From Candidatus Parcubacteria bacterium (lineage in GTDB: Bacteria; Patescibacteriota; Minisyncoccia; UBA6257; HR35): DNA of 64,000 bases. Below are positions 8,764 to 43,646 of the stretch, piece after piece. The stretch spans positions 144,582 to 208,581 of the forward strand of contig BPJG01000001.1 in NCBI GenBank assembly GCA_026004495.1, given 5' to 3'. A program made the translations under genes and the position numbers. The notes below the pieces were generated by a model. That model was not told where the DNA came from. It did not search any database and worked only from the letters and a program-made list of their open reading frames with translations. The number at the start of each line of letters is the position of its first letter. The stretch's first letter is position 1.

Positions 8764-8803
8764 AATAAATATTAATAGAAAAATTATATAAAAAATAAAT
8801 ATA

Positions 8804-8876
8804 AGCCCCCAACAGGACTCGAACCTGTAACCTTGTGGTCCGAAGCCACACGCTCTTCCAATTGAGCTATGGGGGC
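8804..8876 (-). tRNA. tRNA-Arg (anticodon TCG)
   Basis: The reverse complement folds as acceptor GCCCCCA/TGGGGGC, anticodon loop CTTCGGA, T-loop TTCGAGT. Confidence 0.7.
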
Positions 8877-8918
8877 TATTACTATTACTAGCTTTACTAA
8901 AATTTATTAAATCTAAAT

Positions 8919-8991
8919 TGGGCGGGAGAGGATTCGAACCTCTGGCCTTCTCGACGTCAACGAGACGCTCTACCAACTGAGCTACCCGCCC
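8919..8991 (-). tRNA. tRNA-Val (anticodon GAC)
   Basis: The reverse complement folds as acceptor GGGCGGG/CCCGCCC, anticodon loop TTGACGT, T-loop TTCGAAT. Confidence 0.75.
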
Positions 8992-9003
8992 TTATATAAT
9001 TAA

Positions 9004-12664: not shown

Positions 12665-13849
12665 TTAATTATTTTCTTGATCAATATTGTTTTTTTCTTT
12701 TATATCTTTTGTTTTTAAAGTAAAAATAAAAAGTACAACTAAAACAACAACAGCAAAACCAATACCAAACCAAGGCAACCAAGAATATCGTTCGGTTATT
12801 CTATTTTCTTCTTTATCACAAATATCCCCAACACCATCATCATCTGTATCTATCTGATCTTGATTAGGATTATTAGGGCAATTATCTTGAGAATTTATTA
12901 CGCCATCTTTGTCCCAATCATCACAAGCATCTCCTAAGCCATTATTGTCAATATCTTTTTGATCTGAATTATAAACAGAAATACAATTATCATGAACATC
13001 TATTATGCCGTCGTTATCCATATCTGAAGGACGATAAGAAGAATTATTTAAGGATTTTATATTAGGAAGTATTATCAACCCTTCTGTTAATTCTAGATTG
13101 CTCGCTTCTCCAACCAAAACATTAACTGATCTATCAGGATTAAAATATATACGATAAGAGTGTTTTGGCTGGGCTAAAAATCTAATAGCATTACTTGTTA
13201 TTTTGGTAGCATTATCTTGATTTAAGCGTATTTCACTAATACGTAATGGCTGATTATAAAAAAATGTAATTTGCCATTTATCTGATTTAGTTTGTGGAAA
13301 ATAAATAGTAGTTTGAGCCATTGTTTGTTTTGCAACAATAATTTTATCTTGGCCATTAACAAAGGCACGAATTTCTATTGATGTTGGCAAGGCAACATTT
13401 TGATCAAGAACTAAATTTAACTCAGATGAAGTAATTGGAGTTTCGCTTTCTAAATTAATTTGAGCCTGACCCTGATAATTATCTGGAAGTAAAAATTCTG
13501 TATAAGTAGTTGTATCTTTATCTATCATTTTATTTGCTTCTTCATTAAATGGGATTGTGTTTATTGAAATAGGTATCTCATTAACAAATGTTTCTTGCTT
13601 AAAATAATAGGGTTCAAAAGAATTTGTCGTTTCATCAAAAACAGCAAAGTCAAATCGTTCGATAAATTCATTATCGAATGGAACTTCAACAACTGTTGGT
13701 ACCTTTAATTGAATATTTTTTATTTCTTTATAAGAACGAAAAGCGCTAATTATTGATAAAATCTTATCTTGTTGTAAATTTTGACCACTAACAGATTTAA
13801 AATAACAAAAAACAATCAGGATAAATAAAATAAAAAATTTTGATCTCAT
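12665..13849 (-). CDS. secreted protein with thrombospondin type-3-like Ca-binding repeats and C-terminal TM anchor
   Basis: Signal peptide. D-rich repeats (DNDGIIDVHDNC, DIDNNGLGDACDDWDKDGVINSQDNCPNNPNQDQIDTDDDGVGDICD). C-terminal hydrophobic helix. Confidence 0.55.
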   Translation of the reverse strand: MRSKFFILFILIVFCYFKSVSGQNLQQDKILSIISAFRSYKEIKNIQLKVPTVVEVPFDNEFIERFDFAVFDETTNSFEPYYFKQETFVNEIPISINTIPFNEEANKMIDKDTTTYTEFLLPDNYQGQAQINLESETPITSSELNLVLDQNVALPTSIEIRAFVNGQDKIIVAKQTMAQTTIYFPQTKSDKWQITFFYNQPLRISEIRLNQDNATKITSNAIRFLAQPKHSYRIYFNPDRSVNVLVGEASNLELTEGLIILPNIKSLNNSSYRPSDMDNDGIIDVHDNCISVYNSDQKDIDNNGLGDACDDWDKDGVINSQDNCPNNPNQDQIDTDDDGVGDICDKEENRITERYSWLPWFGIGFAVVVLVVLFIFTLKTKDIKEKNNIDQENN

Positions 13850-22535: not shown

Positions 22536-25037
<2,502 letters not shown>

Positions 25038-25053
25038 TGGAAATAATTTTCAA

Positions 25054-26565
25054 TTAATTAAACCTTTCAAAGAATTTAATTAATTCTTCCTTTAATTTAT
25101 TTTCTAATTTCTCATCTAAATCTTGTTTTTCTTTTATTTCTTCTAAAATTTGAGATGTATTGAGCTCAAAATAATCAAATAGTTCTTCTTTAATTTTTTT
25201 AATTTGATAAATTTCAAAATTATCAAAAAATCCATTATTAGCAGCATAAATTAAAATAGCTAATTTTTCAAAAGTTATTGGTTTAAGATTTTCTTGTTTT
25301 AAGATTTCTATTAAAATTCTTCCTCTAATTAATTTTTCTTTTAATTCTTTAGGCAAATCAGTACTAATTTGAGCAAATTCTTCTAATTCTCTATATTGCG
25401 CCAAATCTAATTTTAGCTTACCAGCAATTTTTTTAATTATTTTGGTCTGTGCCTTTGATCCAACCCTTGAAACCGAAAGACCAATATTTATTGCCGGTTT
25501 AAAATTGCTCCTAAATAAATCAGCTTCTAAATATATCTGTCCATCAGTGATGGAAATTAAATTAGTAGGAATATAACTTGAGATATCACCTAACTGAGTT
25601 TCACAAATAGGTAAGGCAGTTAAGCTACCTTTATTTTTTAAATTAGCAGCTCTTTCCAATAATTTAGAGTGGATATAAAAAATATCTCCGGGATAAGCCT
25701 CTCTTCCAACGGGTCTTTTTAATAATAAAGAAATTTCTCTCCAAGACCAGGCATGTTTAGTTAGATCATCATAAATAACAACAGCATCCCTACCTTGATC
25801 CATGAAATATTCTCCAATTGCACAACCAACATAGGGAGCTAAATATAATAAAATTGGATAATCATCAGGAGTTGTTGCTATTATTATTGAATAATCTAGG
25901 GCTTCTTTTTCTCTCAAAATTTCATAAATTCTTTTAATTTTAGACATTTTTTGACCAATAGCAACATAAATACAAACGGGCGTAGGATAAACATCATTCT
26001 TTTGATTAAGAATAACATCTAAAGCAATACTCGTCTTGCCAGTCTGCCTATCTCCTAAAATTAATTGTCTTTGTCCTCTACCAATAGGAATTAAGGCATC
26101 AATAATTTTTATTCCTGTATGGAGAGGAGTATTAACAGGTTGTCTCTCGATAACACCAGGAGCCTTTTTCTCAACCCTATAAAAAGTTTCTGAGGTTATT
26201 TCCGGTAAATTATCTAACGGCTTAATTAAAGGATTAAACACTCTACCTAACATTTCATTACTAACAGGAATACTCAAAATTCTTTTTGTTCTATAAACGA
26301 TATCCTTAGAATTAATTTTATCAAAATCATTCAAACAAACAGCTCCTAAAATTCCTTCTTCTAAATTCATTGCTAGTAATAAAATTTCTTTATCTTCTTT
26401 TTCTATCTTCAAAATTTCCATCATCTGGCAATCATTTAATCCTTCTATCCAAACTATACCATCGTTAATTGATATAACTCTACCGATTTCCTTAAACTCT
26501 AATTCTACTTCAATATTTTCTATAGTATTTTTTAATTTTTCTATTAAAAATTTAATATCCTCCAT
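25054..26565 (-). CDS. atpA: F-type ATP synthase subunit alpha
   Basis: P-loop GDRQTGKTSIA. Confidence 0.95.
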   Translation of the reverse strand: MEDIKFLIEKLKNTIENIEVELEFKEIGRVISINDGIVWIEGLNDCQMMEILKIEKEDKEILLLAMNLEEGILGAVCLNDFDKINSKDIVYRTKRILSIPVSNEMLGRVFNPLIKPLDNLPEITSETFYRVEKKAPGVIERQPVNTPLHTGIKIIDALIPIGRGQRQLILGDRQTGKTSIALDVILNQKNDVYPTPVCIYVAIGQKMSKIKRIYEILREKEALDYSIIIATTPDDYPILLYLAPYVGCAIGEYFMDQGRDAVVIYDDLTKHAWSWREISLLLKRPVGREAYPGDIFYIHSKLLERAANLKNKGSLTALPICETQLGDISSYIPTNLISITDGQIYLEADLFRSNFKPAINIGLSVSRVGSKAQTKIIKKIAGKLKLDLAQYRELEEFAQISTDLPKELKEKLIRGRILIEILKQENLKPITFEKLAILIYAANNGFFDNFEIYQIKKIKEELFDYFELNTSQILEEIKEKQDLDEKLENKLKEELIKFFERFN

Positions 26566-26577
26566 GTATTGTTGAAA

Positions 26578-26934
26578 TTATTTTTTAATAATATTTTCCA
26601 AATTAAAGTTGATTTCTCTATCATTCAATCTTAGAATAAAACCTAAAATAATATTTTTATTAATTCTAACTTTTTCTATTATTAAATTTCTAACAATTTG
26701 ATTAAGTTTATTTCTTATTAAATTTTCATTTTCTAAAAAGACTAATTCTAATTCACCTAATTGAAAACCATTTTCTAAATACAAATCTCTTTTTAGTGAA
26801 AGAAAATTTTTCTTTAATTTTGCTAATTTGCCTTCTTTTCTTAATCTCAAAATGAATTCATTAAGTAAATTAAAATCTTTTTTCTTAAGATAGTTTAAAA
26901 TAATTTTTTTAATAACTATTTCCTCTCTATCCAT
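26578..26934 (-). CDS. atpH: F-type ATP synthase subunit delta (short form)
   Basis: Position between atpF and atpA. Only about 118 aa, corresponding to the OSCP C-terminal part. Confidence 0.55.
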   Translation of the reverse strand: MDREEIVIKKIILNYLKKKDFNLLNEFILRLRKEGKLAKLKKNFLSLKRDLYLENGFQLGELELVFLENENLIRNKLNQIVRNLIIEKVRINKNIILGFILRLNDREINFNLENIIKK

Positions 26935-27406
26935 TTAATTTTTTAATAAATTCTTGATCAAAATCTGATTTATTAAAAATTTTTCGCGCTAAATCAATAA
27001 ACAATTCTCGACTATATTTTTGCATTTCAGATATTAATTTCTCTTTCATAAGATTTTCTTCAATTTTTAACTGTTTATATATTTCATTTTTCTTTAGGTT
27101 AATCTCCTCTCTAGTTTTCAATAAAAGATTTTCTTTTTCTTCTTGGGCTTGTTTTAATATATTAATTCTTTCATTCTCTGCTTCCTCAATTATTTTTTCC
27201 CTTAATAATCTAACTTCTTGAATAAGCTTTTCAACTTCTTCTCTTTTTTTCAATCCTTCTTCAATTTTTTGTTTGCGTTCTTCAATAATCTTACTAATTG
27301 GCTTAGAAAAAAAATAATAAATAACAAAAAACAATAAAGCGAAGTTGATTATTTGTAAAATTAAAATCTTATAGTCTATTCCTAAAGAAAGCTGCAAGCT
27401 ATTCAT
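26927..27406 (-). CDS. atpF: F-type ATP synthase subunit b
   Basis: Single N-terminal TM plus a long charged helix. Position in the operon. Confidence 0.65.
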   Translation of the reverse strand: MNSLQLSLGIDYKILILQIINFALLFFVIYYFFSKPISKIIEERKQKIEEGLKKREEVEKLIQEVRLLREKIIEEAENERINILKQAQEEKENLLLKTREEINLKKNEIYKQLKIEENLMKEKLISEMQKYSRELFIDLARKIFNKSDFDQEFIKKLNG

Positions 27407-27437
27407 AATAATTTTTTTAATTTAGATTTTAAATCAA

Positions 27438-27701
27438 CTACTTTACAAATCTTATAATTAATGCAATAGCTAAGACATAAATAGCTAATGCTTCAGCAAA
27501 AGCAATTGATAAAATGGCCATAGTTTGAATTTTAGAGCTTGCTTCTGGATTTCTGCCTATTGATTTTACTGCTTCACCTCCAATTTTAGCAATTGCCAAA
27601 GCAGGCCCAAGAACACCAATAGTTATAGAAATACCTGTAATAATTAATCTTATTGTTTCGATATCCATATATAAATTAAAAAATTTTAATTTAATGTTCA
27701 A
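27438..27701 (-). CDS. atpE: F-type ATP synthase subunit c
   Basis: Hairpin proteolipid with conserved carboxylate (AFAEALAIY). Confidence 0.85.
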   Translation of the reverse strand: MNIKLKFFNLYMDIETIRLIITGISITIGVLGPALAIAKIGGEAVKSIGRNPEASSKIQTMAILSIAFAEALAIYVLAIALIIRFVK

Positions 27702-28371
27702 AAGCGACCTTAATAAAAACGCTTGTTAAAACAAAAAAAATAAATGCTTGAATTATTCCTACAAAAATTTCTAAGCCAATAAAAATAGAGGGTACTATTA
27801 AGGAAATCAAAAAACTTATAATCATTAACAGAACCTTGCCACTAAAAATATTCCCAAATAATCTAAAACTAAAGGAAATAATTTTAGCAAATTCAGAAAT
27901 TAATTCAAGTATTCCTAAGGGAGATATAAATCTTTTAATAAACCCTACACCTAACTTTAAGAAACCTAAAATATTAGTTATTATCACCGAAATTAAAGAT
28001 AGAGCTAGGGTCATATTGATATCAGAAAAAACTGATCTAAATAAATGAATATGATGGCCATCCTTACTTAAATAAAATGCTTCAAAGGGAGGAAATAAAA
28101 TTATTAAATTAGCAACACTAATATAAATAAGGAAAGTTAAGCAAAATGTAAAAATTTTTAGATTAGTTAAATGTGTTATTCCATGCCAAAAATTATAAAC
28201 AGATTCATAGAATACTTCTAATATAATTTGAATTTTAGTAGGATTTAACTTATACCTTAAACTAAATAGAAAAACAAATATAATTAATATAACTAAATAA
28301 GAGGTTAAAAGAGTATTAGTTATATTTAGATCATATATGGAAATTAATTTTTCTGCTTTTAAATCTATCAT
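27691..28371 (-). CDS. atpB: F-type ATP synthase subunit a
   Basis: Polytopic membrane protein, first gene of the operon, with conserved Arg in the penultimate helix region. Confidence 0.75.
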   Translation of the reverse strand: MIDLKAEKLISIYDLNITNTLLTSYLVILIIFVFLFSLRYKLNPTKIQIILEVFYESVYNFWHGITHLTNLKIFTFCLTFLIYISVANLIILFPPFEAFYLSKDGHHIHLFRSVFSDINMTLALSLISVIITNILGFLKLGVGFIKRFISPLGILELISEFAKIISFSFRLFGNIFSGKVLLMIISFLISLIVPSIFIGLEIFVGIIQAFIFFVLTSVFIKVAFEH

Positions 28372-30237: not shown

Positions 30238-31677
30238 TTATTTAAATAAATCTTCAATATTCTTAATATTCTTTTCTAATATTTTTTCTATGTAATTTAA
30301 ATGTTTTTTAAGGTGTTCAATTTGTTCTTCTTCTTCCTTAACTAATTCTCTTTTCTTTTTAATTGATTCTAATATTTTTAATTGTTTTTCTAAATCGAAC
30401 CTTAACTGGTTAAAAGAATGATGCGAAAATTTTTCTATTTCAGAAATTTTATCCTCAATTTTTTTCTTTATTTTTTTATTTCTCAAGTATAAAATTATTA
30501 AAATTAAAATTAATACTAAAATCAAAATAGTTAAAATTGAAATGATTATGAGTAAATATATTAGATTAATTTTTATATTTTCTAATCTTTTTTCTGTAAG
30601 AATATCGCGAGAGCCAATTTCAAAATTTAAACTACTATAACCAATATTTGAAGCAAAATCGATAGCTTTTACGGTTAAATTATGCTTACCAGGTTTAATA
30701 TTAAAATCTTCTAGTGAAATAATTTTTTCTTTGGTTAGAGTTGCTAAGGTATTATCTAAATAAACTTCAAAATAATTAATACCTGATAAATTATCTTCAG
30801 CTAAAATTTCAAATTTAGGTAATTCATGAGCAAATTTTCTTAAAATTTCTTTTATTTCAACTGAAGGTGGGGTAGTATCAATCATAACTTTATAACTACT
30901 AATTTCACTTGAAGACTCGTTGTCTTCAAATTGTAACCTAAAGTAATAAATACCATCAGCAAGATTTTCTATCTTTCTATAATTTATAGGTGGCTCATAA
31001 ATAATAGTAGGTGGTTGATTAATACTTGTTGTTAAAATTAACTTCACCCTTTTAACATTATTAATTAATTCCCATTCTACTTCTAAATCTTTGATATTAT
31101 ACCATTTATCTTGATCTGGATGAGTTCTAGAAATAATTATAGGTTTAGGTAGATTAATCTTTTTAGAAATAGATAATTGAGTTTGATCATTTTCTAGTTT
31201 TCTTTTATATATTTTAATTTTTGCTTCTGTCGCATTTTTAAAAATATCTGTTCCTTCTCCATCAGCCGCTAAAATTTGAACATTATTAAAATTTATTTTA
31301 GTTACATCAGTCTCCTTTAATCCCCTAAATTCAATGTCGATAATTTTACCTTTTTTACCCTTAAATGCTTTATTTAAAACTACCCCCTCAAAAGTTATTT
31401 CACCATTATTATTATCAAAAACCGGTTTTACTGCCCAAAAATTAATTATTGAATCACTATCAGAAATCTTGATCACTCTTAAATATTTGTTATCAAATTT
31501 TATTCTAACACCAACAGCATTAATCTCTTGATCAGAATCAACATAAGCTGATAATTTAAAATTTTTATTAATTTCAAATTCACCCTCTAATGGTGAAAAA
31601 TATATAGTAGCTGAAAAAATTAAATTAGGCACTAAAAGAATAAAAAAAAAGATAAATAACTTAAAATAAATTTTCAT
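30238..31677 (-). CDS. membrane-anchored cohesin-like domain protein with C-terminal TM and cytoplasmic coiled coil
   Basis: Signal peptide. N-terminal ~140 aa has a cohesin-like pattern (IKFDNKYLRVIKISD...GEITFEGVVL...GKIIDIEFRGLK...INFNNVQILAADGEGTDI). Then a beta-rich region, a TM helix, and a K/E-rich tail. Confidence 0.5.
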   Translation of the reverse strand: MKIYFKLFIFFFILLVPNLIFSATIYFSPLEGEFEINKNFKLSAYVDSDQEINAVGVRIKFDNKYLRVIKISDSDSIINFWAVKPVFDNNNGEITFEGVVLNKAFKGKKGKIIDIEFRGLKETDVTKINFNNVQILAADGEGTDIFKNATEAKIKIYKRKLENDQTQLSISKKINLPKPIIISRTHPDQDKWYNIKDLEVEWELINNVKRVKLILTTSINQPPTIIYEPPINYRKIENLADGIYYFRLQFEDNESSSEISSYKVMIDTTPPSVEIKEILRKFAHELPKFEILAEDNLSGINYFEVYLDNTLATLTKEKIISLEDFNIKPGKHNLTVKAIDFASNIGYSSLNFEIGSRDILTEKRLENIKINLIYLLIIISILTILILVLILILIILYLRNKKIKKKIEDKISEIEKFSHHSFNQLRFDLEKQLKILESIKKKRELVKEEEEQIEHLKKHLNYIEKILEKNIKNIEDLFK

Positions 31678-33109: not shown

Positions 33110-34924
33110 ATGAAAATAAAAGAAATAACAAAAAAAGTAATAATTATAATTTTGTTTTTAGCTATTATTTCATCAAATTTTATATTTAAAAAAAACTTAC
33201 TGGCAAATTTAATTTATTTTTATCCCCAAAATTGTTTAGGTAGTTTTATTAATCCTGAAAAAGCCCAAGGAAAACCTGAAGTTGATAGTCCAGATTTAAT
33301 AAATGAATCAAATTCTGCTGTTTATTTAGGTGGTTTTAAAGAAATTTATTGTGGAAATTTTCAAGGACCAGAGGCTAAAGGAGACATTAAAAAAATAACA
33401 TTACATTTTAATTGGATTATCACTAAAGAAAAAAATGGGGATTCGATAATTAAACCAACCTCAACAGAATCAAATATTTTAGAAAAAATAATTCCTTCAA
33501 AAACAATAGAGTTTGAATTTAATACTTCTCCAACTCCAACACCAGAAACAACCTCAACAATTGAATCAACATCAAGCCCAGAAATAAATTTTTTATTCAA
33601 CAAAGATCAACTTCTGCGTAGTTCTGCATTATCTTCTGTTAGTTCTGCGTCAGTTCTGCGTAGTTCTGCGTTTGATCTGCGTGAGTCTGCTTTAATAAAA
33701 TTTGTCTTTGCTCAAGAAACAACAACATCGCTTGAAACAACACCAGCTACAGAATCAAACTCAGAATCAACCACTATTAATACCCAAACCGAAACAGCAA
33801 CCCAAACTATAAATGAAACTCAACAATCTTTACCAGAAAATCAATCAGCAGAGCTATCAACAACTTCTACTTCAACAAATAATCAAATAGAAAATATCAC
33901 TTCTTCTACGACTACTCAAACATTAACCACCGCTTCACCAGCTGAAAATCAAAATGAAACTAATACAACGACAACAATTTTAGAAACAACCACAACACCA
34001 ATTTTAATACCTCCTAAAACTTTATTTGAAATTCACTATACCTTAGATGGTCAAAATTGGAATTATTTAGGTAATATAAATGAAAATAATTGGCAAAATA
34101 TTTCTTTTGAAATTCCAGTAAATAATTGGCTTGATATATCAAAAATTCAAATTAAGATAAATTCTTTACCAGAAACTGATTATTATCTTTATTTAGAATC
34201 AATGTGGTTTGAGATTGAATATGAAGAAAAAAACGAAGAAGATGAAGTTTTTGATATTTTAGGGAATTATAAGACAAATATCATTGTTTCTAAAGAGAGT
34301 TTCGAGCTTGATGAAATTCCTTACTTTGAATTTAAGATTTCTAAAAACAATAATGAAAATGAAATTGACATTTCTGAAATTAAATCAATTAATATAAAAG
34401 TTTTTAATTCCAATAAGGAGCTAATTTTCCAAACCAATAAGCTGGATTTTGATTATGATTCCAAAAATTTTTCTTTTAAATTAGATAATTTTCTAAAATT
34501 ATATCCAAATAGTTATAGATTAAAAATTTATTTAAATAAATATTTAGCCGGAGAATATGATTTCAATTGGGGAGGAAATATTGTTAAAGAAGAAAAAATT
34601 GACTCAGATAAAGAATTAATATTTATTGATTTTAATAATAAAAATCAAATATGGAATTTAACAAAAAGTGATATAAATAGTTTTGAAAAGATTTGGGAAG
34701 GCAAAGAATTTCCAAATTATAAAATTATTGATAGCTATCTAATTTTAAATTTTTCAGAAACAATTTTAGGCTATGACTTATTAAGTAAAACATCTTTTAC
34801 TTATACCTTTGAAAAATCAACTTCAACAATAATTAATATCAACAATAAAAAATATTCAATTTCACCAAATTTTGATTTTTTAGAAATTAATGAATCTCCA
34901 GAAAATGAAAATCAAGTTTTCTAA
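33110..34924 (+). CDS. secreted S/T-rich surface protein (604 aa)
   Basis: Signal peptide, a long T/S/N-rich linker that is probably glycosylated, and a C-terminal globular region. Overlaps the start of the giant gene by 35 nt. Confidence 0.55.
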   Translation: MKIKEITKKVIIIILFLAIISSNFIFKKNLLANLIYFYPQNCLGSFINPEKAQGKPEVDSPDLINESNSAVYLGGFKEIYCGNFQGPEAKGDIKKITLHFNWIITKEKNGDSIIKPTSTESNILEKIIPSKTIEFEFNTSPTPTPETTSTIESTSSPEINFLFNKDQLLRSSALSSVSSASVLRSSAFDLRESALIKFVFAQETTTSLETTPATESNSESTTINTQTETATQTINETQQSLPENQSAELSTTSTSTNNQIENITSSTTTQTLTTASPAENQNETNTTTTILETTTTPILIPPKTLFEIHYTLDGQNWNYLGNINENNWQNISFEIPVNNWLDISKIQIKINSLPETDYYLYLESMWFEIEYEEKNEEDEVFDILGNYKTNIIVSKESFELDEIPYFEFKISKNNNENEIDISEIKSINIKVFNSNKELIFQTNKLDFDYDSKNFSFKLDNFLKLYPNSYRLKIYLNKYLAGEYDFNWGGNIVKEEKIDSDKELIFIDFNNKNQIWNLTKSDINSFEKIWEGKEFPNYKIIDSYLILNFSETILGYDLLSKTSFTYTFEKSTSTIININNKKYSISPNFDFLEINESPENENQVF

Positions 34925-37900
34925 AAAAGCCTTTGTAAAGGTAAGCAACTTAATTTTAACTCTAATTCTATTAATTTCGCTAAATTTTTCTTATTTTATT
35001 TTAAGTAGTTTTAAATTATCAAAACAAAAATTTAAAGATAAACTTGTTAAAGAAGCGCAGGCAGTTTCTTTTTTCCATCCCACTAATGGCATCTTAGTTA
35101 CTGGTTCAGAAACAGCTTTAAGTAATTCTAATGTTGGCTCATGGCGAGGTTTATTAGGTAATGACTCAAATTATTGGCAAGTAGCCAGAGTTAATCCTGG
35201 AGGTTTAAATCTTTTAATTTATTTTGATGGAGTTGAACTTTATGGAGCTAATAAAATGATTATTACAATTGAAGATTCAAATATTATTACTGGTGATGCT
35301 TATATTCATCAAATTTGTGATTGGGTTGATTCAACTGGAGTTGATAATCCTGCTGATACTGATTGTACTGGTGGTGGTTGGCGAACATTAAATCCAAGAA
35401 AAACAACCTATACTAATATTGCTGATACTATTAGATCTTATGAAATATATAATGGTTATTTTTCAACCAGAGCAGCCTCTCCAGGAACGGTAATTAATAC
35501 TCCTTTATCTAATTTTATTGAACCAACAAATAAAAGAGTCTTAATAAGAGTGTATTCAACTGTCAATTCAACAACTAATTTAAGAATTGATTGGGCGCAA
35601 ATTGAAGTCGCTATTGATCCCTTTTATCAAAATGCTGGTATAACCTTAACTTCAGCTGGAGCAACAACTAACTTTATCTCTGACCTAATTGGTGCTCCTT
35701 ATCCTGGACCCAATAGTTCTGATAATGTTAAATTAACAATTCCTATGCCAGCAGCTAATCAACCAATTGATTTCTATTTCTCTTTTAAAAATGTCAAAAC
35801 TTATACTGGAATGAATACTATTTTAGTTGTTCCTGAAATTTGTGTTTCTAATACAGCTCTAACTTTTGATGTTTATTTGTGGAATTTTACTACTAATTCT
35901 TGGACTAAAAGACCAGGAACAGCTATTACTGGAACTGCTTGTACTACTGATACTGAATATGGTTTTGCTTTTAATCAATATACTATATCTGGTTTTAATT
36001 TAGATGATTATATTTCTAATGGTGAAATTAGAGTTAGGTTTTTAACCAATAATCCAGCTACTGTTTATAATATCCAACTTGATAGAATTTATATCTTTTT
36101 AGGTTCAGTTAATACTAATTCCTCAGCCTGTGAAATATCTTGGGGAACAGGAACAGCTTCAGATTGTGTTAATACCAGAGATATGAACGAAGGTTTAACT
36201 GCTAATCCAACAACTCTTACTTGGCAAACAGGAGCAGTAATTGAATATCCTGCTGGCTATCATCCCTTAGATAACGATGATGATATTACTAATGGTGAAT
36301 ATGCTTTTTCTTCTAATTTAGATTTTCCAGTAACTTTATCTTCTAATATGTCAGTAACTGCTATTCATTATGCTGGCAAATATAGATCAAATGCAACTTC
36401 AATTACCGTTAAACCATCAATTAGAGTTTATGGAGGTTTACCTGGTATTTATAGGAAAGCAGCAGGTTCTGGTTGGCGTGATACTCCCGGATCTGGTACT
36501 AATGCAGCTACTACTTATTCTTATTTTGATACCTTTAGAGTTCCTGAACTTCAAGTTGATGCACCAGATCATATTGATACAGTTAATAATCGAATGAATA
36601 TGAGATTAAGAACTTCAGCTTCAACTAATACTGCTGGTGGTGTAACTAGAGATTGGGATTTTGCAATGATGAGTATTAGATGGGTGGAAGAACCAAATAG
36701 AGTAACAATTACTAAAAATTTCCACCCCACTAACGGTATTTTAGTTACTGGTTCAGAAACAGCTTTAAGTAATTCTAATGTTGGCTCATGGCGAGGTTTA
36801 TTAGGTAATGACTCAAATTATTGGCAAGTAGCCAGAGTTAATCCTGGAGGTTTAAATCTTTTAATTTATTTTGATGGAGTTGAACTTTATGGAGCTAATA
36901 AAATGATTATTACAATTGAAGATTCAAATATTATTACTGGTGATGCTTATATTCATCAAATTTGTGATTGGGTTGATTCAACTGGAGTTGATAATCCTGC
37001 TGATACTGATTGTACTGGTGGTGGTTGGCGAACATTAAATCCAAGAAAAACAACCTATACTAATATTGCTGATACTATTAGATCTTATGAAATATATAAT
37101 GGTTATTTTTCAACCAGAGCAGCCTCTCCAGGAACGGTAATTAATACTCCTTTATCTAATTTTATTGAACCAACAAATAAAAGAGTCTTAATAAGAGTGT
37201 ATTCAACTGTCAATTCAACAACTAATTTAAGAATTGATTGGGCGCAAATTGAAGTCGCTATTGATCCCTTTTATCAAAATGCTGGTATAACCTTAACTTC
37301 AGCTGGAGCAACAACTAACTTTATCTCTGACCTAATTGGTGCTCCTTATCCTGGACCCAATAGTTCTGATAATGTTAAATTAACAATTCCTATGCCAGCA
37401 GCTAATCAACCAATTGATTTCTATTTCTCTTTTAAAAATGTCAAAACTTATACTGGAATGAATACTATTTTAGTTGTTCCTGAAATTTGTGTTTCTAATA
37501 CAGCTCTAACTTTTGATGTTTATTTGTGGAATTTTACTACTAATTCTTGGACTAAAAGACCAGGAACAGCTATTACTGGAACTGCTTGTACTACTGATAC
37601 TGAATATGGTTTTGCTTTTAATCAATATACTATATCTGGTTTTAATTTAGATGATTATATTTCTAATGGTGAAATTAGAGTTAGGTTTTTAACCAATAAT
37701 CCAGCTACTGTTTATAATATCCAACTTGATAGAATTTATATCTTTTTAGGTTCAGTTAATACTAATTCCTCAGCCTGTGAAATATCTTGGGGAACAGGAA
37801 CAGCTTCAGATTGTGTTAATACCAGAGATATGAACGAAGGTTTAACTGCTAATCCAACAACTCTTACTTGGCAAACAGGAGCAGTAATTGAATATCCTGC

Positions 37901-38828
37901 TGGCTATCATCCCTTAGATAACGATGATGATATTACTAATGGTGAATATGCTTTTTCTTCTAATTTAGATTTTCCAGTAACTTTATCTTCTAATATGTCA
38001 GTAACTGCTATTCATTATGCTGGCAAATATAGATCAAATGCAACTTCAATTACCGTTAAACCATCAATTAGAGTTTATGGAGGTTTACCTGGTATTTATA
38101 GGAAAGCAGCAGGTTCTGGTTGGCGTGATACTCCCGGATCTGATACTAATGCAGCTACTACTTATTCTTATTTTGATACCTTTAGAGTTCCTGAACTTCA
38201 AGTTGATGCACCAGATCATATTGATACAGTTAATAATCGAATGAATATGAGATTAAGAACTTCAGCTTCAACTAATACTGCTGGTGGTGTAACTAGAGAT
38301 TGGGATTTTGCAATGATGAGTATTAGATGGGTGGAAAGACCATTTGCACCACCAACAATTACTTGCTCTTTTTCAGCAACTTCAACTTCTTTTTCAAGTT
38401 TATCTCCTTCAGCTGTTTCTACTTCTTCACCTGATATAACAATTACCGTTACCTCTTCTGCTGGTTTTATAATTTCTGTTAATAATGCTGGAGATGGAAC
38501 TAACCCAGGTCTTTATAAATCAACTGCGCCAACATATTTAATTCCTTCACCCGATTCTTCATTTTCTGCAACTGCAACTTTATTTGCTGGCACAGATGGG
38601 TATGGTATTCAAGCAACAACGACTAATTCAAATATAAATATTAATGTAAGGTATAATGTTAGTGGATATACTGTTGGAGGTTTGACAACAACAACCATTA
38701 CTTTGGCAAGCTCTTCAGCTTCTGTTTCTTCGGCTCAAATTACTATTAAACACAAAGCATCTATTTCAGCCTTAGCACCAATAGGAAATTATCAGGATAC
38801 AATAACATATAGTTGCACAAGCCCGTAG
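34890..38828 (+). CDS. giant surface protein (1312 aa) with internal 549-aa tandem duplication and C-terminal SCPU/CsuA-B-like beta-sandwich domain
   Basis: N-terminal TM/signal. Two near-identical 549-aa units. The C-terminal ~160 aa resemble the stand-alone protein at 39426..40085 and pilin-like SCPU domains (see findings). Confidence 0.7.
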   Translation: MNLQKMKIKFSKKAFVKVSNLILTLILLISLNFSYFILSSFKLSKQKFKDKLVKEAQAVSFFHPTNGILVTGSETALSNSNVGSWRGLLGNDSNYWQVARVNPGGLNLLIYFDGVELYGANKMIITIEDSNIITGDAYIHQICDWVDSTGVDNPADTDCTGGGWRTLNPRKTTYTNIADTIRSYEIYNGYFSTRAASPGTVINTPLSNFIEPTNKRVLIRVYSTVNSTTNLRIDWAQIEVAIDPFYQNAGITLTSAGATTNFISDLIGAPYPGPNSSDNVKLTIPMPAANQPIDFYFSFKNVKTYTGMNTILVVPEICVSNTALTFDVYLWNFTTNSWTKRPGTAITGTACTTDTEYGFAFNQYTISGFNLDDYISNGEIRVRFLTNNPATVYNIQLDRIYIFLGSVNTNSSACEISWGTGTASDCVNTRDMNEGLTANPTTLTWQTGAVIEYPAGYHPLDNDDDITNGEYAFSSNLDFPVTLSSNMSVTAIHYAGKYRSNATSITVKPSIRVYGGLPGIYRKAAGSGWRDTPGSGTNAATTYSYFDTFRVPELQVDAPDHIDTVNNRMNMRLRTSASTNTAGGVTRDWDFAMMSIRWVEEPNRVTITKNFHPTNGILVTGSETALSNSNVGSWRGLLGNDSNYWQVARVNPGGLNLLIYFDGVELYGANKMIITIEDSNIITGDAYIHQICDWVDSTGVDNPADTDCTGGGWRTLNPRKTTYTNIADTIRSYEIYNGYFSTRAASPGTVINTPLSNFIEPTNKRVLIRVYSTVNSTTNLRIDWAQIEVAIDPFYQNAGITLTSAGATTNFISDLIGAPYPGPNSSDNVKLTIPMPAANQPIDFYFSFKNVKTYTGMNTILVVPEICVSNTALTFDVYLWNFTTNSWTKRPGTAITGTACTTDTEYGFAFNQYTISGFNLDDYISNGEIRVRFLTNNPATVYNIQLDRIYIFLGSVNTNSSACEISWGTGTASDCVNTRDMNEGLTANPTTLTWQTGAVIEYPAGYHPLDNDDDITNGEYAFSSNLDFPVTLSSNMSVTAIHYAGKYRSNATSITVKPSIRVYGGLPGIYRKAAGSGWRDTPGSDTNAATTYSYFDTFRVPELQVDAPDHIDTVNNRMNMRLRTSASTNTAGGVTRDWDFAMMSIRWVERPFAPPTITCSFSATSTSFSSLSPSAVSTSSPDITITVTSSAGFIISVNNAGDGTNPGLYKSTAPTYLIPSPDSSFSATATLFAGTDGYGIQATTTNSNININVRYNVSGYTVGGLTTTTITLASSSASVSSAQITIKHKASISALAPIGNYQDTITYSCTSP
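35075..38368. repeat. direct tandem duplication, 2 x 1647 bp, near-identical, inside the giant gene
   Basis: The landmark GTTACTGGTTCAGAAACAGC occurs at 35097 and 36744, an offset of 1647. The translated copies differ at only a few residues, e.g. SGTNAAT vs SDTNAAT. Confidence 0.9.
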
Positions 38829-38880
38829 TTAGTAGCTAGTATCTAGTAGCTAGTAAGTAGTAGCTAAAATCTAGTAGTTA
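38826..38880. repeat. TAG/CTAG-rich repeat R1 (TAGTAGCTAGTATCTAGTAGCTAGTAAGTAGTAGCT)
   Basis: Lies directly after the stop of the giant gene. Related copies are at 39255..39333 (inverted) and 40083..40130 (direct). Confidence 0.7.
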
Positions 38881-38886
38881 AATAAA

Positions 38887-39135
38887 ATGAAAACAAAATC
38901 TTTTAAGGAATTAATAGTTTGGCAAAGAGCAAAAGAATTAACAATAGAAGCTTATAAATTAACATCAAAATTTCCAAAATCAGAACTTTTTGGCTTAACA
39001 AGTCAAATGAGAAGATCGGCAATTTCTATTTCTTCAAATATTGCTGAAAGTTATAATCGATTTCATTCAAAAGAGAAAAAACAATTTTTAGCTGTTGCTT
39101 TTAGCTCCGGAGCAGAATTAGAAAGTCAGATTTAA
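38887..39135 (+). pseudogene. four-helix-bundle protein of the 23S rRNA intervening-sequence / Avd-like family, truncated by in-frame TAA
   Basis: Family pattern WQRAKEL...FPK.E.FGLTSQMRRSAISI.SNIAE...R....E...FL..A.SS..ELE.Q stops at ELESQI-TAA. The same frame continues IAKSL..., which is where family members continue (LIIAK.LGY...). Confidence 0.6.
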
Positions 39136-39254
39136 ATTGCTAAATCATTAATTTCCAGATTTAGATTATTCAAAAGTAGAAACTCTTATTATGGATATTA
39201 TGAAAATGTTAAATAAAAATTATTAATAAAAAATAAAAAAAATCAAAAAACAAC

Positions 39255-39333
39255 CTACTATTAGATTCTATTTACTAATTTCTAAATTCTATCCTGTATC
39301 TACTAGATCCTACTTACTAGCTTCTAGATTCTG
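39255..39333. repeat. TAG-rich repeat R2, inverted relative to R1/R3 (..CTACTAGATCCTACTTACTAGCTTCTAGATTCTG)
   Basis: Its reverse complement contains GCTAGTAAGTAG and CTAGTAG, as in R1. Confidence 0.65.
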
Positions 39334-39425: not shown

Positions 39426-40085
39426 TTGGTCGAAATTAATAAAAAAAATAAAATGAAAAAAGTAAATACATTTCAAAGCTTGATCATTTTGATAAGCATA
39501 TTTTTAGCTATTTATTTTATTTCTGAGTTGTTTATTATACCATCGTCTATTTTAAAGGCTCAAACTAATGTTACTGTTTCAGCAACTGTGACAACAAGTG
39601 TTACTTGTAATTTTTCAACAACAACTACTAATTTTGGTACTATCGATACAAGTGCCGTCTATACTTCTTTGCCTAATGTAACAGCAACTGTTTCTTGTAA
39701 TCCAGCTGCAGGATGTAAGGTAGAAATTAACGATCAAGGATCTGGATCTCAGCCAGGTTTATGGAATTCAACAGCTTCTCATTTAATTCCTTCACCAGAT
39801 TCTGCATTCTCAGCAACTGCAAATTTAGTGGCTGGAACAGAAGGTTATGGAATTCAAGCAGCAACAACTTCAGCTGGATCTGGCGCAACTCTTTCTTTAA
39901 ATTCGAGATATATCCAAACTGGAAATACCGTTGGAGGATTAACAACAACAACTATTCAATTAGCCTCTTCGACATCACCAATATCAAACAGAGAAATTGT
40001 TGTTACTCATAAAGCAGCTGTTTCAAGTTTAACTCCAGCAGGTAATTATCAAGATACAATAACTTATAGTTGTTCATCGAATTAG
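39426..40085 (+). CDS. secreted SCPU/CsuA-B-like beta-sandwich protein (pilin-like), paralog of the giant protein C-terminus
   Basis: Signal peptide. NVTVSATVTTSVTCNF...NFGTID (cf. SCPU TFQVSATVxASCxV...FGTYD) and C-terminal AGNYQDTITYSCSS (cf. AGSYSDTVTVTVTY). Aligns with giant-protein residues ~1150-1312 (GL..STA..LIPSPDS.FSATA.L.AGT.GYGIQA.TT...GGLTTTTI.LASS...KA..S.L.P.GNYQDTITYSC). Confidence 0.55.
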   Translation: MVEINKKNKMKKVNTFQSLIILISIFLAIYFISELFIIPSSILKAQTNVTVSATVTTSVTCNFSTTTTNFGTIDTSAVYTSLPNVTATVSCNPAAGCKVEINDQGSGSQPGLWNSTASHLIPSPDSAFSATANLVAGTEGYGIQAATTSAGSGATLSLNSRYIQTGNTVGGLTTTTIQLASSTSPISNREIVVTHKAAVSSLTPAGNYQDTITYSCSSN

Positions 40086-40160: not shown

Positions 40161-41075
40161 ATGAAAAATTATAAAAATAATTCAATAATTTACTTTCTTT
40201 TAGTTTCTATTTTCTATTTACTAGCTACTAATTTATTGGCTACTAATTTTGTTTTTGCCTTAACTGTTGGGCCAGCGAAATTAGAATTTATAACCGATCC
40301 AGGCCAAACTTTAGAATTTAGTTTATTTGTGAGAAACGATAGCGATTACGATAATAAATATCAAATTATTGTTGAAGGATTTACTGAAGAAGGAGGCGAA
40401 AGAAAATATATTGAAAATCCACCAGAAGTAACTTGGGTTGAAACACCAAAAGATATTTTTCTCAAAGCCAAAGAAGATAAAAATGTTCCAATAAAAATTA
40501 ATGTTCCTAAAGATGCTCCACCAGGAGGTCATTTTTTAGTTTTATGGGTAAGCACAAAGCCTGAAGGAGGTCAAGTAGCAATTGTCTCAAGAGTTGGCTC
40601 TTTAGTTTTTATTAATGTTTCAGGAAATGCAATTTATAAAGCTTATATCAGTGAATTAAAAGCTCCAAAATTTGCTTGGAATTTTCCAGTAAAATTTTCT
40701 TATGTAATTAAAAATGAAGGTAACACTTATATCACACCAAAAGGAGATATTGAAATTAAAAATATTTTTGGCAGATTAATTGCTGATTTACCAATAAATC
40801 CAAGAGAGCTTCAAGTTTTACCTAATACTTCAAAAAATTTTGAGCAAGAATGGAAAGCAAATTTTGCTCTTGGTATTTATAAAGCTATTTTTAATTTAGA
40901 ATATGCTAATTCAAGAGATTCTTTAACTCATTGGCTTATTTTTATTGATCTCAAAGCCCTGATAATAATTTTACTTATTCTTATTTTTGCAATCTTCTTC
41001 TTACCAAGATTGATTAAAAAATATAATGAATGGATAATTAAAAAGTATACGCAAAATAAAAATATAAATGAATGA
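40161..41075 (+). CDS. secreted beta-sandwich (Ig/CARDB/DUF916-like) protein with C-terminal TM anchor
   Basis: Signal peptide, about 250 aa predicted all-beta (TVGPAKLEFITDPGQTLEFSLFVRNDS...), C-terminal hydrophobic helix plus a basic tail. The family assignment is tentative. Confidence 0.45.
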   Translation: MKNYKNNSIIYFLLVSIFYLLATNLLATNFVFALTVGPAKLEFITDPGQTLEFSLFVRNDSDYDNKYQIIVEGFTEEGGERKYIENPPEVTWVETPKDIFLKAKEDKNVPIKINVPKDAPPGGHFLVLWVSTKPEGGQVAIVSRVGSLVFINVSGNAIYKAYISELKAPKFAWNFPVKFSYVIKNEGNTYITPKGDIEIKNIFGRLIADLPINPRELQVLPNTSKNFEQEWKANFALGIYKAIFNLEYANSRDSLTHWLIFIDLKALIIILLILIFAIFFLPRLIKKYNEWIIKKYTQNKNINE

Positions 41076-42124
41076 ATTTAAGAATAATTTCAATAATTTT
41101 TTTAATATTTGTTTCTATATTTATATTATTTTATTCTTTTACTTATCTTAAATCTGCTTCGATAAATATTAAAGCTTTTGTGCCTGGTATTTGTGGAAAT
41201 AATTTTAAAGAACCAGGAGAAGAATGTGATGGCCCTGATTTAGGAGGTCAAAGTTGTGTTTCTTTAGGTTATTCAGGCGGAACCTTATCTTGTAATTCTA
41301 ATTGTACTTTTAATACTTCTCAATGTACCATTTCTCCGCCAAGTAGTGGAGGAGGTGGGGGAGGCAGTGGATCGTACATTCCCTCTTATGGAACAGTTAT
41401 TCTTTCAGGAAGGGCTCAACCGAATAGTGATGTTACTTTAATGTCTGATGGTCAAATTAAAGCTGTTATCAAGGTTGATGCTGATGGAAAATTTAGATTT
41501 ACTATTTCAAATTTAACTCCAGGAAATTACATATTTACCTTATATGCTGAAGATATTGAAGGAAGAAGAACAAGTTTGCATTCAATTCCAACAGTAGTTA
41601 CTGCAGGACTGACAATTGAAATAGGCAGTATTTTTCTTTCACCAACAATTGACATTGATAAAACTCAAGTTAGGCGAGGAGAGATCTTAAGAATTTTTGG
41701 CCAAACAGCTCCTGAATCTAATGTTTTAATTGTTGTTTCTTCCGAAAAAGAGTTATATTTTCAAACTCAAGCAGAAAAAGATGGAAGTTATTTATATGCT
41801 TTCAATACTATTGACTTAGATTATGGCCAACATTTAACAAAATCAAGATCAATTTTAGCTAATCAATTAGTTAGTCCTTTTTCAAGATCTTTAAACTTTC
41901 AAGTCTCGACAAGTTCAATAGCTAAAAAACCAACAAAATGTCCATTAAAAGGAGATTTAAATAATGATTGTCGAGTAAATTTAATTGATTTTTCAATTGC
42001 CGCTTATTGGTATAAAAGAAAATTAAGTCCAAGTTTTACTAAAATTGAAAAAGAAAATTTAAATGGAGATGGAAAGGTCGATTTAGTCGATTTTAGTATT
42101 ATGGCTTATTGGTGGACGGGGTAA
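41072..42124 (+). CDS. dockerin-domain protein with N-terminal anchor, Cys-rich module, Gly linker and Ig-like domains
   Basis: The C-terminus has two canonical dockerin Ca-binding repeats: GDLNNDCRVNLIDFSIAAYWYKRK and NLNGDGKVDLVDFSIMAYWW. The N-terminal region carries 8 Cys (CGNNFKEPGEECDG...SCVS...SCNSNCTF..SQC) followed by GGGGGGSG. Confidence 0.7.
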   Translation: MNLRIISIIFLIFVSIFILFYSFTYLKSASINIKAFVPGICGNNFKEPGEECDGPDLGGQSCVSLGYSGGTLSCNSNCTFNTSQCTISPPSSGGGGGGSGSYIPSYGTVILSGRAQPNSDVTLMSDGQIKAVIKVDADGKFRFTISNLTPGNYIFTLYAEDIEGRRTSLHSIPTVVTAGLTIEIGSIFLSPTIDIDKTQVRRGEILRIFGQTAPESNVLIVVSSEKELYFQTQAEKDGSYLYAFNTIDLDYGQHLTKSRSILANQLVSPFSRSLNFQVSTSSIAKKPTKCPLKGDLNNDCRVNLIDFSIAAYWYKRKLSPSFTKIEKENLNGDGKVDLVDFSIMAYWWTG

Positions 42125-42127
42125 TAG

Positions 42128-42224
42128 CCACACGAATGCCAACGAATCAAATAAGCACACGAATGGCAACGAATTATATAATATTTGTGTGCAATTCGTG
42201 TTAATACACGAATGGCGATGAATT
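42128..42224. repeat. repeat family 2, left copy: tandem CACACGAATGGCAACGAAT units plus an internal inverted copy
   Basis: CACACGAATGCCAACGAAT, CACACGAATGGCAACGAAT, and GTGTGCAATTCGTGTTAATACACGAATGGCGATGAAT. Confidence 0.7.
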
Positions 42225-42275
42225 AAAATATAGAATTAGTAACAATTTGTGTAATTATGTACGAATAATAAAAAA

Positions 42276-42641
42276 ATGAACGTAAATATTAATAAAAACC
42301 AGAGTAGAAATATTTTGTATAAAGAGCTTTCTTGCAAGCTACAAGATATCTTTTTTAAAATAAGAAATGAGTTGGGTAGTGGTCATAAAGAATCAATTTA
42401 TCAAAATGCCCTGGCTAAAGAATTAGAAAAGAATAAAATAAACTTTCAAAGAGAATATCCGGTGAAAATATATTCAAAAGAAGGTTATTTCTTAGGATTA
42501 TATAAACCTGATTTTGTAATAGATAATAAGATAATAATAGAAGTTAAAGCGAAAAGTTTTTTGTCAAAGCAAGAAAGGATAATTATTTATGATTATTTAA
42601 AAAATAGCGAGTTTGAAGTCGCTTATATTGTAAATTTTTAA
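42276..42641 (+). CDS. GxxExxY protein (PD-(D/E)XK nuclease-like small protein)
   Basis: The motif GHKESIY (G-x-x-E-x-x-Y) is followed by L(G/Y)KPDFVIDNKIIIEVKA, a D...E.K core. Size 121 aa. Confidence 0.65.
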   Translation: MNVNINKNQSRNILYKELSCKLQDIFFKIRNELGSGHKESIYQNALAKELEKNKINFQREYPVKIYSKEGYFLGLYKPDFVIDNKIIIEVKAKSFLSKQERIIIYDYLKNSEFEVAYIVNF

Positions 42642-42713
42642 TCTAAAAAATTATTTTTCAAAAGATATATTTTTACAAACAATAGAAAGCCATGGTTAAA
42701 AAATATAAAATAA

Positions 42714-42766
42714 AATTCGTGTGCCATTCGTGTAATATTATTATATATTCGTACCATTCGTGTAGT
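42714..42766. repeat. repeat family 2, right copy, inverted (ATTCGTGTGCCATTCGTGTA ... ATTCGTACCATTCGTGTAG)
   Basis: Reverse complement of the CACGAATGG(C/T)ACACGAAT units found upstream of the gene. Confidence 0.7.
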
Positions 42767-42773
42767 TATAAAA

Positions 42774-43646
42774 ATGTCTAGGATTTATATACAAAGTGAT
42801 AAAAAAATGAATACTGATAAAATTATTATACCTATCTATCTTGACACTGAGGGAGAATCAATTAATGCTTTTGAAGTTAAAATTAAAATCTCTGACAATT
42901 TAATTTTTAGAGATTATTTAGAGAAAGATTCAATTATTAGTTATTGGATTGAAAGACCCCATGTAGTAGAGCGGAGCTCACTACCTGGCAAACCCAATGT
43001 AGTAGAAAAAAGTTCACCACAAGGTTCTACTACTGAGAACTTGTCTCGTAGTGAACCACAAGGTTCTACTACCGAGATAAATTTTTCTGGAATTACTCCG
43101 GGAGGTTATATTGGTAAAAAAGCTTTATTAGTAAATTTAATTTTTGAAGCTAAACAAAGTGGTTCAGCTTTCATTGAAATCTTGCCTTCGTCCAATGTTT
43201 TGTTAAATGATAGCTTAGGAACAAAAGCAAAATTAATAACTGAGAAATATAGTTTTATTTTAAACCGAACTCAGGAGAAGAAAATAATAATTCAAGATAA
43301 TTACCCACCCGAGCCATTTAAGGTTTATCTTCAAAAAGATAAAGAAATTTTTAATAATAAATATTATCTTGTTTTTTATGCCCAAGACAAACAATCAGGA
43401 ATATCTTATTATGAAGTTAAAGAAGGTGATTATGATTTTGAAAAAGCTTCATCACCATATCTTTTAAAAGATCAATCTTTAAGAAGTTATGTCTATATTA
43501 AAGCAGTTGATCGAGCAGGAAATGAACGAATTGAGATTTTTAAACCTCGAAAATTATTTTTGTTAGAGGAAATTTTATCCTTGATTTTTTTTATTGTTAT
43601 AATATTCTTAATATTTCTAATTTTCAATAAAAAATTTAAGAAATAA
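42774..43646 (+). CDS. membrane-anchored cohesin-like domain protein (second copy) with in-frame repeat insertion
   Basis: The N-terminal beta domain resembles the 30238..31677 protein (IIIPIYLDTEGESINAFEVKIKISDNLIF...EINFSGITPGGYIGKKALLVNLIFEAK...AFIEIL). There is a C-terminal Ig-like region plus a TM anchor. An inserted segment RPHVVERSSLPGKPNVVEKSSPQGSTTENLSRSEPQGSTTE is encoded by short direct and inverted repeats. Confidence 0.5.
   Translation: MSRIYIQSDKKMNTDKIIIPIYLDTEGESINAFEVKIKISDNLIFRDYLEKDSIISYWIERPHVVERSSLPGKPNVVEKSSPQGSTTENLSRSEPQGSTTEINFSGITPGGYIGKKALLVNLIFEAKQSGSAFIEILPSSNVLLNDSLGTKAKLITEKYSFILNRTQEKKIIIQDNYPPEPFKVYLQKDKEIFNNKYYLVFYAQDKQSGISYYEVKEGDYDFEKASSPYLLKDQSLRSYVYIKAVDRAGNERIEIFKPRKLFLLEEILSLIFFIVIIFLIFLIFNKKFKK

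Follow-up and report, generated by a model that had tools for sequence, protein, structure and literature searches.

Cohesin-dockerin pairs of cellulosomal and non-cellulosomal kind, the Pam pili and the WxL/Csc clusters of Firmicutes are the described systems that come closest to a three-gene module analysed here in a 64-kb stretch of DNA from a Candidatus Parcubacteria bacterium (64,000 nucleotides of contig BPJG01000001.1, positions 144,582 to 208,581; the whole stretch is termed the window). The trio encodes a dockerin-bearing stalk protein, doc350, and two cohesin-like membrane proteins, coh290 and coh479. We consider it likely that doc350 is tethered by calcium-dependent binding of its dockerin to the membrane cohesins, and that the trio works with a surface fibre in surface or host attachment.

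With the cellulosomal type I pairs of Clostridium thermocellum and its relatives the module has in common a two-repeat dockerin with canonical calcium loops and high internal symmetry, and a jelly-roll cohesin. Positions 10 and 11 of the loops, a Ser-Thr pair in cellulosomal type I dockerins, are in contrast hydrophobic in doc350 (L-I and L-V), and the first position of the second loop is, unlike in the cellulosomal modules, variable in the doc350 family. No scaffoldin, multi-cohesin protein, carbohydrate-binding module, SLH domain, carbohydrate-active enzyme or glycoside hydrolase was found in the window, so that the trio does not qualify as part of a cellulosome.

Cohesin and dockerin modules are reportedly widespread outside cellulosomes. 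In the non-cellulosomal pairs of Clostridium perfringens GH84C (2w1n, 2jh2) and Archaeoglobus fulgidus (2xdh), as here, a single cohesin and a single dockerin stand on separate proteins with no cellulose-degrading context. Unlike in those pairs, the dockerin is carried here by a small, non-enzymatic stalk of Ig domains, two paralogues anchored by C-terminal membrane helices bear the cohesins, and the three genes recur as a fixed set in hundreds of Patescibacteria, often beside pilus genes.

The Pam operon codes for the chaperones PamC/D, which have a C-terminal membrane helix, and the Pam fibre is proposed to be ended by the N-terminal strand of PamR, a single protein that would serve as membrane anchor; ATP synthase genes lie near the Pam genes, the pilins are reported mainly in Saccharimonadia and Microgenomatia, and neither a dockerin nor a cohesin is mentioned for the system (Troman et al., bioRxiv 10.64898/2026.03.03.709456). 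The cluster around the trio resembles this system in having pilins related to PamA/B/T by NCBIfam models, a PamC/D-type two-Ig membrane partner (chap304), a tip-like subunit that appears to lack a donor strand and ATP synthase genes nearby; it differs in that the pilin of the window (pil219) is single-domain and falls below the NCBIfam cut-off.

WxL clusters pair a small WxL protein with a large one that ends in a WxL domain and add a WxLIP built as DUF916, DUF3324 and a transmembrane (TM) helix; neither cohesin nor dockerin genes figure in the account given of them in PMC10599100. The same three-part logic as in the WxL/Csc clusters of Firmicutes (EfmWxLIP1, PDB 9i25/9i1y) is followed by pil219, a 1312-residue protein and chap304. 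Unlike in those clusters, no WxL motif was seen on inspection of the window pilin.

The dockerin stalk and the two membrane cohesins

An earlier reading made from the letters alone (the sequence-only reading) had placed a dockerin at the C-terminus of a cysteine-rich, Ig-domain protein. The reading frame proved exact and the C-terminal module is, as far as its sequence tells, a genuine dockerin. The Dockerin_1 model (PF00404) is passed marginally, its gathering cut-off being 22.9 bits and the score of doc350 23.1 (E=8.7e-5, residues 293-344), and solved type I dockerins are matched weakly by the single sequence (2y3n_B, E=0.007); a profile of the 39-member family matches these structures at E=1.5e-6, and every one of the 39 is itself recognised by Dockerin_1, with E<=0.01 throughout and 4.6e-9 as the best value. 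Each repeat is a 12-residue calcium loop with Asp or Asn at positions 1, 3, 5 and 9 and Asp at position 12, followed by a helix, the ligands being D295, N297, D299, N303 and D306 in the first loop and N329, N331, D333, D337 and D340 in the second. The two 22-residue repeats proposed earlier hold as far as both peptides are present (residues 295-317 and 329-348), whereas they are not strict 22-mers, the unit being the loop plus the helix.

Conservation of the loops was counted over 112 unique family members. Positions 1/3/5/9/12 of loop 1 are D/N/D/N/D in 108-112 of these, positions 3, 5, 9 and 12 of loop 2 are as conserved, and the proteins always end 10 residues beyond loop 2; in the family alignment no other stretch of the protein is as well conserved as the dockerin. 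Its repeats are identical at 12 of 20 positions (60%), a symmetry that would fit a dual binding mode or the simultaneous binding of both paralogous cohesins, and a conserved pair, C290 and C300, probably forms a disulfide. No second dockerin was found in the 64-kb window.

Ahead of the dockerin, doc350 carries a signal peptide, a short strand, a six-cysteine module and tandem Ig/FN3-like domains (Table 1). Cleavage by signal peptidase I is likely after S-A-S (residues 28-30), and AXA-type sites stand at the equivalent place in aligned homologues; signal peptide and conserved cysteines together point to an extracellular protein. The strand that opens the mature protein (family consensus S-V-N-V-T-A-I-V-P-G) is left unstructured by AlphaFold2 (predicted local distance difference test, pLDDT, <50); it resembles a pilin donor strand and might function as one. 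In the six-cysteine module C41, C52, C62, C74, C78 and C85 are invariant, one family member matches Pfam DUF4215, and modules of the same type occur also in giant proteins as arrays of 8-31 copies. A poly-Gly linker leads to the Ig domains, which match Big_6 (29 bits, Pfam) and are modelled at pLDDT >90. A Foldseek search with the doc350 model returned only generic tandem Ig/FN3 and adhesin-stalk matches, and no enzyme domain was found in doc350 with Pfam. The start ATG overlaps the stop codon of the upstream chap304 gene by 4 nt (ATGA).

On its own, coh290 has no Pfam match at E<=1 and hence does not reach the cohesin family PF00963, which is matched by 3 of 40 members of its family; the family profile finds Ruminococcus flavefaciens cohesins weakly (E=0.007). 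Its AlphaFold2 model (pLDDT 85) is more telling, for nearly all of the top 50 Foldseek matches are cohesins and not generic Ig folds. The first is the cohesin plus FN3 construct of C. perfringens GH84C (2w1n, E=1.6e-10); next come 2jh2 and 2xdh, the latter a non-cellulosomal cohesin of A. fulgidus, and then dozens from cellulosomes. The model thus predicts a nine-stranded jelly-roll cohesin fold for coh290; for coh479 it would follow by homology only. The charges flanking the membrane helix of coh290 predict an outside N-terminus.

For coh479 alone there was no PF00963 match at E<=0.01, and a phmmer search against the PDB gave nothing relevant; around 20 of 62 homologues carry PF00963, and one that is 56% identical is named 'cohesin domain-containing protein' by NCBI. 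The coh290 and coh479 families are homologous (hhalign probability 100%, E=1.5e-44), and the two proteins are paralogues, both with a C-terminal TM helix, beyond which coh479 continues into a presumably cytoplasmic coiled coil of ~75 residues. The coh479 gene overlaps a glycerate-kinase-like gene by 4 nt. Conservation taken strand by strand located no binding face on the cohesins, being evenly spread with the FN3-like domain most conserved, and is not decisive. No cohesins besides coh290 and coh479 were found in the 64-kb window.

The sequence-only reading had named two membrane-anchored cohesin candidates in a non-cellulosomal setting. Both candidates are upheld, by the cohesin fold of the coh290 model, the paralogy of coh479 and the C-terminal TM helices, and so is the setting, with no carbohydrate-active enzyme, carbohydrate-binding module or multi-cohesin scaffoldin in the window. 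Neither of the computational outcomes that it had named as refuting came about: structure speaks for cohesins and not for a generic Ig fold, and PF00963 appears among relatives, whereas the window proteins themselves fail that model. That reading had overlooked the Pam-pilus/WxL-like cluster and the absence of a signal peptide from coh290; coh479 lies ~10 kb upstream on the opposite strand.

Some observations concern coh290 as a sequence. A low-complexity insert (residues 67-99) consists of in-frame sequence of higher G+C, e.g. 'VVERSSLPGKPNVVEKSSPQGSTTENLSRSEPQGSTTE', and related inserts are found at the same loop in several homologues; elsewhere in the window a peptide 'SASVLRSS' is inserted both in a 604-residue secreted protein and in a P-type ATPase. 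Such inserts suggest short repeat elements that enter coding regions in frame. The signal-less form of coh290 defines a clade made up of this genome, HR35, KatS3mg095, SKYB and related metagenome-assembled genomes, and in this clade the C-terminal membrane helix is retained and the sequence strongly conserved (homologues P0064-P0068 and P0075-P0087; loci L001, L004, L005, L008 and L010). Stop-codon read-through from doc350 into coh290 was considered as an export route and discarded, since neither the spacing nor the frame of the two genes is constant among relatives and since a 650-nt insert keeps them apart here.

A conserved trio within a surface-fibre cluster

The doc350 family comprises at least 1,730 clusters at 90% identity by word-indexed search and ~1,075 representatives at 50% identity by exhaustive search (E<=1e-30), and the module is present in at least 580 species-representative genomes. 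Record labels include Paceibacteria/Parcubacteria, Wolfe-, Campbell-, Nomura-, Komeili-, Magasanik-, Veblen-, Portnoy- and Torokbacteria and Minisyncoccia; some other labels, 'Gammaproteobacteria' and 'Aenigmatarchaeota' among them, probably reflect mistakes in binning or labelling. According to the exhaustive search many head variants, among them the Cys-rich module, an 'SSNF'-motif region with FN3 and larger inserts, are carried on a constant Ig-Ig-dockerin body. SEML1_0315, the essential 'dockerin' protein of Southlakia epibionticum, was considered and set aside, as it is not of the doc350 family (927 residues, unrelated context).

Gene order was read from open reading frames (ORFs) called in 80 loci and labelled with hidden Markov models (HMMs) iterated from the window proteins; the denominators are loci with enough flank, from species-representative genomes. 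Directly downstream of the dockerin gene a cohesin gene was found in all 74 loci, and two cohesin genes, the coh290 type followed by the coh479 type, in 60 of 62. Directly upstream stands a chap304-like gene in 49 of 67 loci, and a Pam-type pilin gene lies upstream in 26 of 58. In most genomes coh479 comes directly after coh290; its displacement is a feature of the lineage of the window. At one locus (L024, ~6870-9470) a single ORF of 866 residues spans both cohesin positions; the two genes are fused there, or else a stop codon was missed.

The trio sits inside a Pam-pilus/WxL-like surface-fibre cluster, in its distal part, here and in most genomes. The family profile of chap304, a partner with two Ig-like domains and a C-terminal TM helix read from the sequence, aligns over both domains to the solved EfmWxLIP1 of Enterococcus faecium (E=8.5e-5), and Pfam WxLIP_PGBD is matched by 11 of 34 relatives; an NCBIfam search of the family returned no Pam chaperone model. 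Membership in the Pam system was judged by the NCBIfam models NF058581 and NF058579. The pilin pil219 matches NF058581 'CPR_Pam_pilin_C' weakly, at 22 bits and thus below the cut-off of 55, whereas 25 of 29 syntenic homologues match it (5.8e-46 at best) and 12 are recognised by the PamT model (1.4e-36 at best). Long homologues have the PamA/B architecture of N-terminal domain, linker strand and C-terminal domain, next to which pil219 appears as a minimal Pam-type pilin with strand and C-terminal domain only. No PDB matches were obtained with the pilin family profile.

The C-terminal 160 residues of the 1312-residue protein share 55% identity with the pil219 pilin domain and come without the N-terminal strand; because its pilin domain is not preceded by a strand, the protein appears tip-adhesin-like. 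A donor strand before the C-terminal domain together with a strandless tip subunit is a pattern that would fit the Pam system. The gene of this protein holds a tandem duplication of 1647 nt at ~99% identity (549 residues repeated), which may be real and recent or an assembly artefact.

Table 1. Features of the window (positions counted from its first nucleotide) and the basis on which the parts of doc350 were assigned.
Feature	Position	Strand	Basis
P-type ATPase	9961-12513
394-residue membrane-anchored protein	12665-13849	-
ATP synthase genes near the cluster	22768-28371
coh479, 479 residues: signal peptide, cohesin, extra domain, Big_13/FN3-like domain, TM helix, tail	30238-31677	-
604-residue secreted protein; its gene opens the cluster and is conserved upstream at several related loci	33110-34924	+
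1312-residue protein: large N-terminal region, C-terminal pilin-type domain	34890-38828	+
Tandem duplication in the 1312-residue gene	35072-38365
23S_rRNA_IVP gene	38887-39135
pil219, 219 residues: signal peptide, strand NVTVSATVTTSVT, one pilin C-terminal domain	39426-40085	+
chap304, 304 residues: two Ig-like domains and C-terminal TM helix; WxLIP (DUF916-DUF3324)-like	40161-41075	+
doc350, dockerin-bearing secreted stalk protein, 350 residues	41072-42124	+	ORF exact
doc350 signal peptide, residues 1-30 (mature part from 41162)	41072-41161	+	sequence and alignments
doc350 mature N-terminal alternating β-strand INIKAFVPGI	41162-41191	+	alignments
doc350 six-cysteine module, CGN..E.GE.CD type	41192-41326	+	alignments
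doc350 tandem Ig/FN3-like domains, about residues 105-185 and 186-280	41384-41911	+	Big_6, AlphaFold2
doc350 dockerin module, residues 290-350	41939-42121	+	Pfam, profile, Ca-loop conservation
doc350 Ca loop 1, D295-D306	41954-41989	+
doc350 Ca loop 2, N329-D340	42056-42091	+
PDDEXK_3 gene	42276-42641
coh290, 290 residues: cohesin residues 1-165, FN3-like residues 180-258, TM helix residues 264-289 with basic tail	42774-43646	+
coh290 low-complexity in-frame insert	42972-43070
Repeat-bearing spacers	38820-39332; 42123-42775; also 40083-40138

Loci with a short chap304-like gene (~200 residues, one Ig domain) have a different pilin-like family of 150-180 residues with the N-terminus '..TATVTATVTVQNIS..', as in L046 (8843-9343), L057 (8814-9332), L002 (3425-3952) and similar ones. 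This family is not detected by the pilin HMM, and larger proteins in the same loci share its C-terminal domain.

The spacers of the operon hold two small genes, 23S_rRNA_IVP and PDDEXK_3, each bracketed by its own short iterated inverted repeats, 'TAGTAGCTAGTATC' for the first and 'ACACGAATGGCAACGAAT' for the second; the motif CACGAATKSC has 5 occurrences where 0.07 would be expected, and a third repeat patch carries no gene. The repeats could form long stems, as RNase III-type processing sites or mobile cassettes. Genes of 23S_rRNA_IVP, GIY-YIG and PDDEXK_3-like type are found in the equivalent spacers of unrelated genomes (L002/L012 5949-6191; L003 5914-6186; L023 11040-12353; L072 10206-11480), those of L023 and L072 reading as one ORF with the coh290 gene, and the spacers look like a recurrent insertion hot spot. 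A scan for promoters and terminators stayed at chance level in the AT-rich DNA of the window (G+C ~25%). Outside the cluster, the membrane-anchored protein of 394 residues has Asp-rich, thrombospondin type 3-like calcium-binding repeats (DNDGIIDVHDNC...DTDDDGVGDICD) and no dockerin.

Proposed tethering of the stalk and its alternatives

In the mechanism that we favour, doc350 would be exported by Sec as a non-enzymatic stalk and its dockerin would bind, in a calcium-dependent manner, the cohesin of coh290 and/or coh479. Both cohesin proteins would be held in the cytoplasmic membrane by their C-terminal helices, and the Ig stalk with its head would thereby be fastened non-covalently to the cell surface. 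A functional link between dockerin and cohesins is supported by the conserved gene order, and the distal place of the trio in the fibre cluster suggests that it would act together with the fibre in surface or host attachment.

Several results weigh against this mechanism. AlphaFold2 modelled the dockerin (residues 290-350) at pLDDT 43-69 and without canonical helices, from an alignment that was shallow and of highly similar sequences; the assignment rests for this reason on sequence and not on a predicted fold. The first position of loop 2, N in doc350, varies across the family (D 45, R 26, K 20). Neither cohesin of the window passes PF00963 alone, both having been identified by profiles and structure. 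In this genome coh290 begins exactly at the mature domain, without the signal peptide that most relatives have in classical form; some 260 residues would have to be translocated in this form, and coh479 may be the only usable cohesin partner here. Finally, a subfamily in which the 'SSNF' region plus FN3 replaces the Cys-rich head keeps both cohesin genes and has no pilin or chap304 gene upstream, which makes the link to the fibre not obligatory.

This last observation bears on the possibility that the trio is an independent display module, presenting a variable head as an adhesin and adjoining pilus genes only through the co-regulation of attachment. The constancy of the Ig-Ig-dockerin body beneath varying heads agrees with it, as does the persistence of the trio in ~18 loci without pilin or chap304 genes. 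It is harder to reconcile with the tight translational coupling to chap304 in the window, with the direct adjacency of the two genes in most loci (49 of 67) and with the pilin-like strand at the N-terminus of doc350. We regard this account as a reasonable contender, although it is probably not the right one.

The same strand raises the question whether doc350 may also anchor the fibre itself. It would then be the terminating Pam-type subunit, its N-terminal strand completing the groove of the last pilin by donor-strand complementation and its dockerin plugging into one or both of the membrane cohesins, so that doc350 and a cohesin-TM protein would amount to a two-piece form of the PamR of Ca. 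Mycosynbacter amalyticus; through its cytoplasmic coiled coil, coh479 might link the base of the fibre with the inside of the cell. PamR, as the proposed fibre terminator, provides a precedent for such a role (bioRxiv 10.64898/2026.03.03.709456). The strand at the mature N-terminus is conserved, alternating and unstructured in AlphaFold2, the 4-nt overlap ties doc350 to a WxLIP/PamC-like gene, and the division of parts is suggestive, for the 1312-residue protein has the pilin domain and lacks the strand, doc350 has the strand and lacks the pilin domain, and pil219 has both. The motif [VI].[VI][STN][AG].[VI] is met in 21 of 60 doc350 N-termini and 25 of 38 pilins; elsewhere in these loci, in their other ORFs, it is about a thousand-fold rarer (1.1e-4 per residue); as it was defined post hoc on phylogenetically related sequences, this enrichment is only suggestive. 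The strand could belong to the fold of the Cys-rich module, and where the head is of another kind, in the subfamily named above, pilin and chap304 genes are missing. That doc350 is the fibre anchor is therefore a tentative reading, and that a dockerin-cohesin joint of this kind fastens a Pam-type donor-strand-exchange fibre to the cytoplasmic membrane in many Patescibacteria is conceivable and rather doubtful.

That the dockerin-like module does not bind cohesin at all, being instead an EF-hand-type calcium structural element or a binder of peptidoglycan or host, with the ligands of the cohesin-like proteins unrelated, is improbable: EF-hand_7 is also matched by 8 of the 39 family members, and the low AlphaFold2 confidence on the module, the failure of the window cohesins at PF00963 and the absence of an export signal from coh290 here would agree with it, whereas the invariant co-occurrence of dockerin and cohesin genes (74 of 74), the extreme conservation of the dockerin helices and the cohesin-specific fold matches of the coh290 model speak against it.

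Meaning for the Patescibacteria

The presence of dockerin and cohesin domains outside cellulosomes was already known, and some homologues had been named by the NCBI pipeline. The literature searched held no paper that links dockerin or cohesin with surface structures of Patescibacteria; new with respect to it are the fixed trio of a dockerin stalk and two membrane cohesins, the location of this trio at the end of a Pam/WxL-like cluster and the anchoring model. The module joins three things that had been described separately, namely the cohesin-dockerin pairs outside cellulosomes, the Pam pili, which were solved only recently, and the WxL clusters of Firmicutes.

Patescibacteria are ultra-small and host-dependent, attachment organelles are central to their lifestyle, and how they build and hold surface structures is largely unknown. 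A dockerin that is almost invariant, in a module so widespread, suggests a basic envelope function. The anchoring mechanism is concrete and testable, and experiments are feasible because the cluster is present also in the enrichment-cultured Ca. Microsyncoccus archaeolyticus PMX.50 (L036). If doc350 does anchor the fibre, it would be the first case of a cohesin-dockerin pair serving as a pilus anchor, and such a joint would explain the easy detachment of Pam pili.

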